Assembly (NCBI GenBank): GCA_964016885.1
Contig: OZ024746.1
Coordinates: 81,964,001-82,028,000, forward strand
Direction of reading: 5' to 3'
Length of the DNA: 64,000 nt
From: Eledone cirrhosa
Taxonomy: Eukaryota
Part shown: positions 1,818 to 47,385 of the stretch, one piece after another
Position numbering within the stretch: the first letter of the stretch is position 1
Layout: each line of letters opens with the position of its first letter
The notes under the pieces: generated by a model
The model's database searches: none
Told to the model about the DNA's origin: nothing
The model's input: the letters and a program-made list of their open reading frames with translations, nothing else
Position numbers and translations under genes: made by a program

Positions 1818-2813
1818 TCATGTTGGTATTATGCGTTGAATCTTTTCTTTAATATTGTGGTAAATTTCCAAGAAACCTCGACGAAACATATGATTAGTTC
1901 CAGCATATAAAATTAAGTTGATTCCAAATGTTAAATAATAAGGAATTAACAAGAAGTGTTGTGCTTCCTGCAAAGCTCGCACATCATATGATAAGAAATT
2001 CGTGAAGATTATAGAATAAAATCTTGTTATGTGACTAGGGAGAACCATCACTACAAACACACTTGAAACGATTACCAGTGATTTAGTCAATTTCATTTGT
2101 GTCTTTGATAACAAATTCTGTGTTTTCTCGTGAGGCTGAGATTCCTGTAACCAGTTCATACGTTTCTTTACAGCTCGAACAGCCCAAATTATTCGAATGT
2201 TCATGAAAAGAAGAGCCAGAAATGGTAAAATAAATGTAATTGCAGTATCCATGTATGTTATCACAGCAAGAAGAACAAACAGTTTCTGGCGATACATACA
2301 TTGCTCACGGTTATCAATAGTTGTCGTCCAAAAGCTGGGCATATAAAGAAACACAGTAATGATGCATATTATAAGTGTAGATAGACGAGCTCTTCGTTTT
2401 GTACATATTTGCGTTGCTTTTAAAGGATAGCAAACGACTTTATATCGTTCTATTGTGAATAAAACAGTAAACCACACAGACAAAAAGCCAAATATATACG
2501 AACCAAACACAATGAACTGACACCACGATTGTGTAATATATATCTGTATTCTCATATTCTGAAGCCATGTGCACAAGAGAATTGAAAGAAAACCTGAGTC
2601 TGATAAAGCGAGGGCAGCCATGTATGTGCTCGATGGAAGTTTCTTCATTGCTGTACTGCATGTGAACACAATAAAAGACAGTAAATTTCCTGGTATTCCA
2701 AGAGCAATCAAAACAGGTAAAGCGTAAATATGTAAAGTATCGGTAATATATAAGAACAAACTGGGATTATCAACCAATGTTAAATTTGAAGATAAATTTG
2801 AATGTTCTTTCAT
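1818..2813 (-). CDS. Rhodopsin-family (class A) GPCR, peptide-receptor-like (FMRFamide/TRH/GPR139-like orphan group), 331 aa, intronless CDS
   Basis: Seven hydrophobic segments with class A motifs: TM1 GIPGN, TM2 LALSD, ECL1 W-C, TM3 TIERY, TM5 FILPF, TM6 FVVMVLP, TM7 INLILY. N-terminal N-glycosylation sites NLS and NLT. Confidence 0.93.
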   Translation of the reverse strand: MKEHSNLSSNLTLVDNPSLFLYITDTLHIYALPVLIALGIPGNLLSFIVFTCSTAMKKLPSSTYMAALALSDSGFLSILLCTWLQNMRIQIYITQSWCQFIVFGSYIFGFLSVWFTVLFTIERYKVVCYPLKATQICTKRRARLSTLIICIITVFLYMPSFWTTTIDNREQCMYRQKLFVLLAVITYMDTAITFILPFLALLFMNIRIIWAVRAVKKRMNWLQESQPHEKTQNLLSKTQMKLTKSLVIVSSVFVVMVLPSHITRFYSIIFTNFLSYDVRALQEAQHFLLIPYYLTFGINLILYAGTNHMFRRGFLEIYHNIKEKIQRIIPT

Positions 2814-3013
2814 CTTGCTATCGATTTTCTGTTTAAAATGTTATTTACTGCAGTGCATCAATTAGAAGTTTCTTCTATTCATACATTTGAATGGGCTTTA
2901 TTTCTTTTCTAAATGCTCTTCATGGACAATACATTTCCTCTTTAATGGGATGCAACAGCAAATCAAAAATGATGGAAACGTTCGATATCTGTCCTTTTAT
3001 TTGTTGAAATCTT

Positions 3014-18238: not shown

Positions 18239-18521
18239 TTTATATGGACATACACACACATATATATATGTAAATGGAGAGAGATAATTTTTTTAGTATT
18301 AAGTAGAATCGAACAGTGTAATGTTTTAATGTTCTGCTCTCGAAGGAAATGCTTTCTATTTATAGCTGAGATGCGCATGACTAAACAACCATCAGCAGGT
18401 GAGTAGAAGTTCTTTCGTTTTCGATTTTTCTTCTTTTAAAGAATTTTCATCTAATATATGTAAGTGTGTGTGTGTGTGTGTGTGTGTGTTCGCGCGTTTA
18501 TCTGTCTGTGTGTAGTGCCTT

Positions 18522-18785: not shown

Positions 18786-19192
18786 AATATATATAGATAA
18801 TTTAATATATCAACTAACATAAGCGCACAGATGCACGCCCATGCCAGCAAATACACAGGTTATGTCATAGTACCTAGGTGGTTCAATGCAGGAGAATGCA
18901 GAACAATAATATAAAGGACGTAAAATAAGAAAATATTTTTTAAAAAAAATTTTAAAAAAATTTTTTACTTACTTAAATTTTCACTCCAACTAATTAGTTT
19001 CTGCACCCATTCCTTCTAACTAGCCTCTGTGTCACGTGATTGATTCTTTAGAATCGGCCATTTGACTTGAAGCAGTGAGAATTTCGGTACATAGAATCCA
19101 GTCCTCGCAAGCTGTTCGATCTACCGAATTATTATTATTTTTATATGAGCCGCCAGTGTCCGCGCATTGCCTGGAGACTTAACTGAGAATAG

Positions 19193-19274
19193 ACTCCCTG
19201 ATGACGCAATGAATTCTCGACAGTTGGATTACGTAACTGTCTTTATCCCATTGCAGAAACTAATTAGTTGGAGT
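19193..19274 (+). ncRNA. Type I hammerhead ribozyme, copy 1
   Basis: Stem I ACTCC/GGAGT; core CTGATGA; stem II GCAATG/CATTGC plus GACAGTT/AACTGTC; GAAA; palindromic stem III CTAATTAG; predicted GUU cleavage after 19269. Confidence 0.88.
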
Positions 19275-19749
19275 GAAAATTTAAGTAAGTAAAAAATTTT
19301 TTTTAAATTTTTTTTAAAAAATATTTTCTTATTTTACGTCCTTTATATTATTGTTCTGCATTCTCCTGCATTGAACCACCTAGGTACTATGACATAACCT
19401 GTGTATTTGCTGGCATGGGCGTGCATCTGTGCGCTTATGTTAGTTGATATATTAAATTATCTATATTTATCTCCAAATCACTGATTTGTCGAGCAAACTT
19501 GTCAAAAGCACTTCTAAAAAAATTTTTTTTGGGGTGTTAGTAGGCGTCAGTCATCTTACCATCCCATTCCTTCTAACTAGCCTCTGTGTCACGTGATTGA
19601 TTCTTTAGAATCGGCCATTTGACTTGAAGCAGTGAGAATTTCGGTACATAGAATCCAGTCCTCGCAAGCTGTTCGATCTACCGAATTATTATTATTTTTA
19701 TATGAGCCGCCAGTGTCCGCGCATTGCCTGGAGACTTAACTGAGAATAG

Positions 19750-19831
19750 ACTCCCTGATGACGCAATGAATTCTCGACAGTTGGATTACGTAACTGTCTT
19801 TATCCCATTGCAGAAACTAATTAGTTGGAGT
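19750..19831 (+). ncRNA. Type I hammerhead ribozyme, copy 2
   Basis: Identical to copy 1; predicted cleavage after 19826. Confidence 0.88.
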
Positions 19832-20307
19832 GAAAATTTAAGTAAGTAAAAAATTTTTTTAAAATTTTTTTAAAAAAATATTTTCTTATTTTACGTCCTT
19901 TATATTATTGTTCTGCATTCTCCTGCATTGAACCACCTAGGTACTATGACATAACCTGTGTATTTGCTGGCATGGGCGTGCATCTGTGCGCTTATGTTAG
20001 TTGATATATTAAATTATCTATATTTATCTCCAAATCACTGATTTGTCGAGCAAACTTGTCAAAAGCACTTCTAAAAAAAATTTTTTTTGGGGTGTTAGTA
20101 GGCGTCAGTCATCTTACCATCCCATTCCTTCTAACTAGCCTCCGTGTCACGTGATTAATTCTTTAGAATCGGCCATTTGACTTGAAGCAGTGAGAATTTC
20201 GGTACATAGAATCCAGTCCTCGCAAGCTGTTTGATCTACCGAATTATTATTATTTTTATATGAGCCGCCAGTGTCCGCGCATTGCCTGGAGACTTAACTG
20301 AGAATAG

Positions 20308-20389
20308 ACTCCCTGATGACGCAATGAATTCTCGACAGTTGGATTACGTAACTGTCTTTATCCCATTGCAGAAACTAATTAGTTGGAGT
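20308..20389 (+). ncRNA. Type I hammerhead ribozyme, copy 3
   Basis: Identical to copy 1; predicted cleavage after 20384. Confidence 0.88.
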
Positions 20390-20467
20390 GAAAATTTAAG
20401 TAAGTAAAAAATTTTTTTAAAATTTTTTTTAAAAAATATTTTCTTATTTTACGTCCTTTATATAAAT

Positions 20468-46019: not shown

Positions 46020-47385
46020 TTAGTTATACTATTTATGGTTATGTAAATACAAAACCTTAAGCAGTTGTAAGTATTTTACACACACCCTAAATACCAGTAA
46101 GTTAAGTAGCTCAATGTAAAAACATCAGATGATTTACAGAGCAGTTATATGATTGTACCTATTAATATAAATGTAATCTCGAAGTGTGTACTGCCACTCT
46201 AAATTCTGTAATGAATGTTGACCCACAATGTTTGAATATGTATCAATGTTTGAATATGTGTTGGTATGTCTCTCGGCTGAAAAGGAGGTCATATAACTGT
46301 CCATGCATTAATAAATTGCTCCGAAGAATCCAAACCTCGGTTTGGAGGAAACAGCTGTAAGCACAATAATGTTTTGAACTGTTCTTTGATTCTTATATTT
46401 CATATATATATATATATATCGTGTAGCTCTTTTATTGGTTAGTTAATTTTGTTGGCTACTGCAGAGTACTGTAGTTGTTGGTGGTATCGTTATCCCTATC
46501 AGTATGTATGCCTTATTCTACAAGAAATGTTTTGGTCATATAGTTGGTGTAATAGTGTTGTGTAATAGACAAGTCCTCTGTGTTTCGTGGATTGTTAGTG
46601 TCGATTGGGATTTCTTATTCTTATATATATGATGGGCTTCTGCACATTTCCGCCTGCCAAATTCAATCACAAAGCACTGTTGGTAAAGTACACTTGCCCA
46701 AGGTACTACGTAGCAAGACTAAACAAGAAAATAACTCCTTAACCGCACAGACATGACTGATCCTATCGCACAACTACGAATATGTGTAACGTTTTTTTAA
46801 ATGGCACAAGTCTAGTAATACAGGAGGAGTTATAAAGTCGATTATATCGTCTCAAGGACTTAACTGGTATTTTATTTGATCGACCACGGAATGATGAAGA
46901 GCAAAGTTGACTTCGACAGGATTTGAACTCAAAAGGAAACAAGCAAGAACAAATACTGCTAGGCATTTGTCCGCCGCTCTAACAACTCTGCCAATCCACC
47001 GCACTTGTATCTTTTTTTAATGAACAGTAAATGAATTATTTCTTTATTTGAAGCAATATATTACATTGTTAAGTAAATATAAATTAAGTGTCCTATTCAA
47101 TGCCAAAATGCTATGAACCATAAGCTATCTAGTCTCTTATCTAATCAGCCAGATCATTTTTCAGTTTCTTTTATAATTATTGTTTTACAATTTTGTTTCT
47201 AGTTACAGTTTAAGGAAAAAAACGAAGAACATTTTTCTAATAGTTTTCTTTTTAAAGTTATAAAATGATTTATGAAAGAATTAACTTTAGTTATTAAATT
47301 TAATCCAAATTATAAATAAGCAATAAGCAATAAGCATTATAAAATGTATTATTCCCGCTCAAACTGTTTCTCTCTCTCTCTCTCC

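Follow-up and report, generated by a model that had tools for sequence, protein, structure and literature searches.

The window (the whole 64,000-nt stretch of Eledone cirrhosa DNA that was analysed) contains an insertion in which a unit carrying a hammerhead motif is repeated head to tail. The positions of these elements, and of the other features of the window, are given in Table 1.

Table 1. Features of the window and their positions
Feature	Position	Strand	Remarks
ORF, rhodopsin-family 7TM receptor	1821-2840	-	single ORF; PF00001, E 1e-27
33-nt stretch	18366-18398	+	400 nt upstream; between splice-acceptor-like and donor-like sequence
Whole insertion in (TA)n microsatellite	18787..20463		inverted 5' arm and 2.6 head-to-tail units
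Inverted, 5'-truncated arm, 219 nt	18787..19005	-	unit positions 248-466; stops at long 3' end point
Tandem array	19006..20463	+	557-558 nt units; stops at short 3' end point
Conserved block GTCACGTGATTGATTCTTT	19031..19049	+	no internal-branch change
Distal stem I, 5' strand ACUUA	19177..19181	+	partner UAAGU 19286-19290
Predicted pseudoknot, 5' strand GAGAAU	19185..19190	+	
Stem I, ACUCC / GGAGU	19193-19197 / 19270-19274	+	5 bp; 5 or 6 bp across subfamilies
Core C3-A9, CUGAUGA	19198-19204	+	
Extra base C	19205	+	A or U in other copies
Bipartite stem II	19206..19254	+	IIa 6 bp, 7x7 internal loop, IIb 7 bp, 9-nt loop
Stem IIa, GCAAUG / CAUUGC	19206-19211 / 19249-19254	+	begins at G10.1-C11.1
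Predicted pseudoknot, 3' strand AUUCUC	19213..19218	+	inside stem II internal loop
Stem IIb, GACAGUU / AACUGUC	19219-19225 / 19235-19241	+	closed by 9-nt loop
Extra A between C11.1 and G12	19255	+	
GAAA	19256-19259	+	G12-A13-A14, stem III and U17 span 19256..19269; predicted cut after 19269
Palindromic stem III ACUAAUUAGU	19259-19268	+	U16.1-U17 at 19268-19269
GUAAGU	19285..19290	+	overlaps distal stem I partner
Short 3' end point of insertions	19341..19358	+	~+79 from cut
Long 3' end point of insertions	19445..19485	+	~+201 from cut
Second hammerhead copy, identical	19734..19847	+	core 19755
Third hammerhead copy, identical	20292..20405	+	core 20313
Neptune-like PLE 3' end	26400-26290	-	terminal repeat hammerhead-like: stem II ~95 nt, core CCGAUGA, palindrome ACAAUUGU
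Endonuclease tail of the same PLE	27045-26779	-	
Hammerhead-like motif	34271-34194	-	long stem II, palindrome ACGCGCGU; inverted-repeat insertion between TA repeats
Truncated family D terminal repeat	46321-46358	+	core CCGAAGA (C at position 4); A.G at stem II base

The unit has a G+C content of 36%. A search of it for ORFs found none, the longest stop-free stretch being 52 codons. The motif is a type I hammerhead, with the CUGANGA...GAAA...UH core (at 19198 in the first copy, with a predicted cut at 19269/19270) at a three-way junction and stem I open. The helices and loops that the first-pass annotation had listed were all recovered, and they are real beyond chance, as judged from folding, genomic matches and covariation. 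The fold z score was -3.5 for 19190-19275, with none of 200 shuffles as good, and a weaker -2.0 for the whole 110 nt (8 of 200 shuffles). An Rfam search of the motif gave no hammerhead match at the gathering score nor at E<=10.

Stem I was 4-6 bp long in 65 of the 73 copies that we aligned. The annotation had extended it through ACUUAA/UUAAGU; the distal pairing is indeed conserved, but as ACUUA/UAAGU (paired in 97% of cells), and the register first proposed has a broken pair in 62 of the 73 copies. A search of these copies for compensatory change in both distal registers found none.

The hexamer GUAAGU, which we take to be 5' splice-site-like, lies ~10 nt after stem I in this family (family A) and in family C of the same genome, and may be a splice donor, introns being possible in PLE repeats. 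If the 33-nt stretch upstream were a host exon, the array would lie sense in an intron.

Core-flanking bases and covariation among copies

In the first-pass annotation the usual G10.1-C11.1 pair was replaced by C.A. We observed instead that G10.1-C11.1 was kept in 73 of 73 aligned copies, and that the C and the A are extra bases outside it, forming a standard pair in none of these copies. Among the first 100 matches listed, the base after A9 was C 90 times, A 8 times and U twice. The extra A before G12 was 99% fixed, with another base in just 28 genomic pattern matches. Since the extra A is constant and the base that faces it is variable, the two do not amount to a specific C.A pair. In type I hammerheads C11.1 stands directly before G12; here the extra A intervenes in all but those 28 matches. 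Two explanations of a C.A step were considered and rejected. An origin by CpG decay of a C-G pair is at odds with there being only 28 copies without the A, all scattered, and a required C.A pair does not agree with a 5' base that can be C, A or U, the A cases being one subfamily sequence type.

The base after A9 corresponds to the extra nucleotide known from PLE hammerheads (available text of PMC4209133). An extra A in front of G12 recurs in families B and C, which are unrelated but belong to the same genome; in the autonomous family D, most copies among the matches listed show an A.G step at this place. As far as the sequences go, the extra A is one rare core insertion.

The annotation had named covariation across genomic copies as a check of its helices, and these proved to be conserved, with stem II covarying and stem III invariant. 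Genome-wide, 3,114 matches had a different stem IIa (reversed control, 0), and 1,816 had N7 other than U (control, 37). Among the 73 aligned copies, pair 2 of stem IIa occurred as G-C, U-A, A-U and C-G and was mismatch-free in every copy, pair 5 took two Watson-Crick forms, and five of the six counted pairs of stem IIb changed on both sides. Over stems IIa and IIb together, 171 cells were changed on both sides, a number reached by 0 of 500 shuffles and compared with at most 37 in slid controls. The tree placed the stem II changes as separate steps along a subfamily ladder. This alignment and its tree omit mutant-selected copies, 5'-truncated copies and families B-D.

Stem III is invariant, and there is therefore no covariation evidence for it inside family A. 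The 49 variants of its loop were scattered, none of them compensatory, and one compensatory stem III case (L109) was seen among the matches of a separate search. We also examined 62 full units, the most divergent of them 68% identical to the window copy. The sites of the core, the extra A and stem III, 23 in all, were without exception free of internal-branch change, as against 59% of 517 sites (~6e-6 if sites are independent); this set kept mutant-selected copies, which inflated the terminal changes at two sites. Strict catalytic positions with a free N7 are the pattern expected if there were selection on catalysis, and on these comparisons the motif is real, conserved and probably functional. 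The block GTCACGTGATTGATTCTTT may be an internal promoter element.

Probable pairing of stem II with stem I, and the stem III palindrome

A strand 5' of stem I, GAGAAU, is complementary to AUUCUC in the internal loop of stem II. Complementarity alone is weak evidence, since a chance match to the flank reached 6 bp in 3% of shuffles and 5 bp in 15%. We therefore looked at the third pair of this putative helix, which genome-wide was G-C in 8,511 matches, A-U in 685, G.U in 236 and A.C in 80, with 0 in the controls; the 9,512 matches are the sum of four pseudoknot patterns, and a few may count twice. Where the 5' side had A, U stood opposite in 90% of such copies; the A.C mismatch class was at the level of scattered decay, and the G.U intermediates were present in tandem arrays. 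The G-C to A-U swap had one origin in the 73-row tree (a 15-row clade, support 99/97; L169 lies outside the tree), and because of this the counts are not independent events. The third pair thus appears to record one compensatory event together with an amplified wobble intermediate.

The sixth pair was unpaired in 43 of 73 aligned copies. The distant family C locus L146 retains GAGAAA/UUUCUC with 6 bp, and the family C locus L139 is without the 5' strand in register. By sequence there are at least 4 bp of Watson-Crick pairing, with covariation, between the loops of stems I and II, which is the mark of pseudoknotted hammerheads. The helix has a duplex energy of -4.3 kcal/mol. The second strand of the internal loop (UUUAUCC) was rejected as a partner of the 5' flank, with which it forms just 3 bp.

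It is likely, from these observations, that the internal loop of stem II and the sequence flanking stem I on its 5' side pair as a pseudoknot. Stem II is likely bipartite because the internal loop replaces loop 2 and stem IIb closes the docking loop; stem IIb varies in length and sequence between copies. A 5-bp helix I and a 6-bp helix II with loop pairing have been described in type III hammerheads, and the spacing here is the same (available text of PMC7936874). This loop-loop pairing, missed by the first-pass annotation, would be a well-supported new structural feature. Our literature search turned up no account of the family, nor of any type I hammerhead that docks via a stem II internal loop; subscription papers, Repbase, figure images, preprint supplements and Lunse et al. 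2017 may contain precedent.

The palindromic stem III had been described as strained within a hairpin and able to pair between two copies, and the energies bear this out, at +1.5 kcal/mol for the hairpin alone and -9.0 kcal/mol for the two-copy duplex. The monomer and dimer energies given here omit the loop-loop pseudoknot pairing. In the monomer, an inactive fold, with CUGAU of the core paired to one half of the palindrome, was preferred by 2.5 kcal/mol over the active one; for the 15 copies with N7=C it was ahead by just 0.2 kcal/mol. The double hammerhead came to -45.8 kcal/mol as against -38.8 for two inactive monomers, which is 7 kcal/mol better. The idea that cleavage may need a dimer of adjacent units is hence favoured by the energies, but it is neither new nor an established requirement, the N7=C copies being nearly unbiased. 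A palindromic helix III that goes with dimer activity has been described as the rule in hammerheads of PLEs and amphibians (PMC4209133, PMC7229834 and PMC6765202, as far as their available text goes), and in one preprint 8 of 9 tested dimers did not cleave (10.64898/2026.07.22.740005, available part). On the modelled energies, we lean towards a dimer that would cleave faster than the monomer.

The same element, with the same pseudoknot, could nevertheless cleave as a monomer, if the loop-loop helix stabilised the active fold and a 3-bp stem III hairpin formed. We consider this rather unlikely. The inactive fold leads by only 0.2-2.5 kcal/mol with the pseudoknot helix uncounted, pseudoknots speed hammerhead cleavage by orders of magnitude (PMC3088659), and the retrozymes of coral and mussel have monomer cleavage rates of ~0.8 and ~0.1 per min (PMC7229834), both sources as available in part. 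Most older insertions are also single, since a same-strand neighbour was found at 2 of 24 older-subfamily loci compared with 14 of 18 of the youngest. Against monomer cleavage, the stem III hairpin alone is unstable, its self-complementary loop AAUU is unchanged across subfamilies, and other families in the genome have different perfect palindromes (ACCGCGGU, ACAGCUGU, ACAAUUGU). In family B (L134-L145; rare) the palindrome is in most cases imperfect, and the usual sequence is ACCUUUGGU. Family C (L139 4001, + strand; L146 4092, - strand) is rare too, with the palindrome ACCGCGGU and a bipartite stem II.

Copies, insertion ends and a candidate partner

Across the genome there are ~9,500 pattern matches, which fall into many subfamilies. 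Searching the same genome at the DNA level returned 803 candidates, of which 40 were scored, all 100% identical. A pattern search of metagenome and viral contigs gave no match. We classed 125 of 134 array ends at two points, 61 short and 64 long; the ends were placed by a rough script, and a few 'long' ends in fact continue. Junctions into TA repeats accounted for 86 of the 91 located. The insertions are 5'-truncated, often with an inverted arm. The predicted circle is highly paired (z -3.8 over 40 shuffles). Rolling-circle copying of one template and multimer copying were compared by the distances within arrays (mean 4.2), which overlapped those between young arrays; one of these comparisons left overlapping loci unmerged.

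Tandem, non-coding, low-G+C units with a type I hammerhead in each are the organisation of non-LTR retrozymes, and the fixed 3' ends, optional tail, 5' truncation, inverted arm and microsatellite target are those of PLE-mobilised sequences. The array is, very probably on these features, a retrozyme-like element. Young copies that are dispersed, with 3' ends that are fixed and 5' arms that are inverted, indicate retrotransposition and not unequal crossover, and they speak against the units being satellite-like DNA-level copies. We regard this reading, and that of detached terminal repeats of an autonomous PLE, as unlikely. In support of detached repeats, Xenopus retrozymes match PLE terminal repeats (10.64898/2026.07.22.740005, available part), and PLE fragments abut units in L063 and L207. 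On the other side, none of the ~150 loci inspected, out of thousands, had a PLE ORF with the family A hammerhead in its terminal repeat; units follow units there, and no same-strand endonuclease ORF lies upstream of them. PLE neighbours are moreover expected, since PLEs are dense in this genome (41,711 Neptune-like candidates).

The units joined to PLE ORF fragments lie at L063 1047-1125 and L207 2402-2410, by template switching or nested insertion. The Neptune-like family adjoining L063 was rejected as a parent, having a different terminal-repeat hammerhead and no DNA similarity to the unit, and the RT fragments beside L051 and L207 were set aside as flanking or fused sequence.

The 4.2-kb tandem unit of family D contains an ORF of 819 aa; the family has two 3' ends and TA targets, and its hammerhead had 2,699 genomic matches. 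The ORF is intact in L221 (693-3149, + strand) and L222, whose near-identical tandem units suggest a recently active autonomous family. Its cysteine linker is presumably of the Neptune type, which is described in PMC8557442 (available part). The look-alikes of family D in a protein atlas have RT, GIY-YIG and HTH_animal domains, and the PLE proteins were assigned by such look-alikes and by sequence motifs; Pfam and PDB sequence searches left these proteins unclassified. The motif at the short 3' end of family D was identical at 16 of 18 positions to three of the five family A loci compared, and at 13 of 18 to the window copy. Local alignment of families D and A was significant for two of four subfamilies, the likeness being limited to short end motifs. 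These likenesses are suggestive of family D as the best partner candidate. That a Neptune-like PLE mobilises family A seems to us fairly probable.

Together, these analyses have led us to favour, with moderate confidence, a type I hammerhead in a non-autonomous Penelope-like retrozyme, in which stem II would dock on stem I and cleavage would take place in a tandem double hammerhead. The array would be transcribed into a multimer, and pairing of GAGAAU with AUUCUC would keep stems I and II parallel, stem IIb just closing the docking loop. Neighbouring units would exchange stem III and stem I strands and be cut after GUU. A Neptune-like PLE reverse transcriptase would then copy the unit-length or circularised RNA, or else the uncut multimer, beginning 79 or 201 nt downstream of the cut, with insertion into (TA)n.

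A different role for the fold, mainly as a scaffold for PLE protein binding or processing, with weak or protein-dependent cleavage and insertions from uncut multimers, is in our judgement unlikely. It would account for insertions that cross the cut site for up to four units, although circular templates would also yield multi-unit insertions. Two extra bases flank G10.1-C11.1, and in the predicted homodimer U17 can pair with A14. In vitro cleavage by PLE hammerheads is slow (PMC4209133), and one such hammerhead depended on protein and could be dispensed with for insertion in vitro (PMC11167929; both as available in part). The strict conservation of the catalytic positions, with N7 free, argues against a scaffold and is consistent with the self-cleaving retrozyme that we favour.

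The analysis adds a natural family, with ~9,500 copies, in whose subfamilies compensatory changes can be read, among them a path from G-C through G.U to A-U in the putative loop-loop helix. Copies of family A offer a means of asking if a tertiary pseudoknot and dimer cleavage can go together in one PLE-type hammerhead, and in what way the core accommodates an additional nucleotide in front of G12. The family would also exemplify PLE-driven retrozyme mobility in an invertebrate, whose genome holds an intact element as candidate partner. Hammerheads with a long stem II form a class that standard models miss, escaping both Rfam and short-spacer descriptors.

Comparison with known hammerheads and retrozymes

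The comparisons below refer to those parts of the cited papers that were available. Much of what the first-pass annotation had listed as unusual, namely the palindromic stem III, dimer cleavage, the GUU site and the extra base after A9, is already described for PLE hammerheads (PMC4209133), and the new part is the likely docking of the stem II internal loop on the flank of stem I. The element is mostly of a known kind, a PLE-type hammerhead in a retrozyme, and the dimer idea is known. A distinct architecture, with kissing internal loops, a stem II of at least 13 bp after an N.A step, and a pseudoknot and stem III swap that would make cleavage depend on tandem units, is conceivable, and we put it forward only tentatively.

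The minimal type I hammerheads of PLEs share with family A the consensus CUGANGAH G...C GAAAN palindrome NU H, the extra base after A9, G10.1-C11.1, a helix I of 4-5 bp and a palindromic helix III with a proposed dimer (PMC4209133). The marks of this class, a base between A9 and G10.1, the G10.1-C11.1 pair and a palindrome over 15.2-16.2 and loop 3, are all found here. U17 of the GUU site is common among them, in ~24 of 56 rows as counted from extracted text. They have a simple helix II hairpin and an ill-defined loop 1, whereas here stem II is bipartite with a predicted pseudoknot. AGAAA occurs in one of the 56 rows of the 2014 supplement, by text order the Cotesia bracovirus PLE, which provides a precedent for the extra A before G12; here it is the rule. 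Stems II 40-100 nt long are seen in several PLE families of this genome, and some of the 'half cores' of PMC8557442, where PLE hammerheads were called absent, could thus be such motifs.

In the pseudoknotted hammerheads of Perreault 2011 (PMC3088659) and in the HDV-like type III hammerheads of toad and termite (PMC7936874), it is a terminal loop that serves as the partner in helix II, and the hammerheads are type III or microbial. The hammerhead of family A differs in being type I, in having the stem II internal loop as the partner, and in the presence, besides the predicted pseudoknot, of a palindromic stem III and of two additional bases next to the core. A further topology is that of the PK hammerhead in PMC11300833, where the pseudoknot replaces helix II.

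Metazoan non-LTR retrozymes share with the array its non-coding, low-G+C tandem units with a type I hammerhead in each, a highly paired predicted circle and a proposed dependence on PLEs (PMC7229834; 10.64898/2026.07.22.740005). The unit of 557 nt compares with 170-400 nt in the former source and lies within the 51-972 nt of the latter. Those retrozymes have a canonical core, in contrast to the PLE-type core, short dispersed arrays, inverted arms and two fixed 3' ends seen here, where circles are predicted. Neptune-type EN+ PLEs and Poseidon PAc share 5' truncation, partial tandems, an inverted 5' copy, an optional 3' 'tail' from two reverse-transcription starts and microsatellite or AT-rich targets (PMC8557442; PMC11167929). 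The tail is ~120 nt here and ~170 nt in family D, compared with 30-40 nt in Neptune-type PLEs, and the family A unit is distinguished from these elements by having no ORF.
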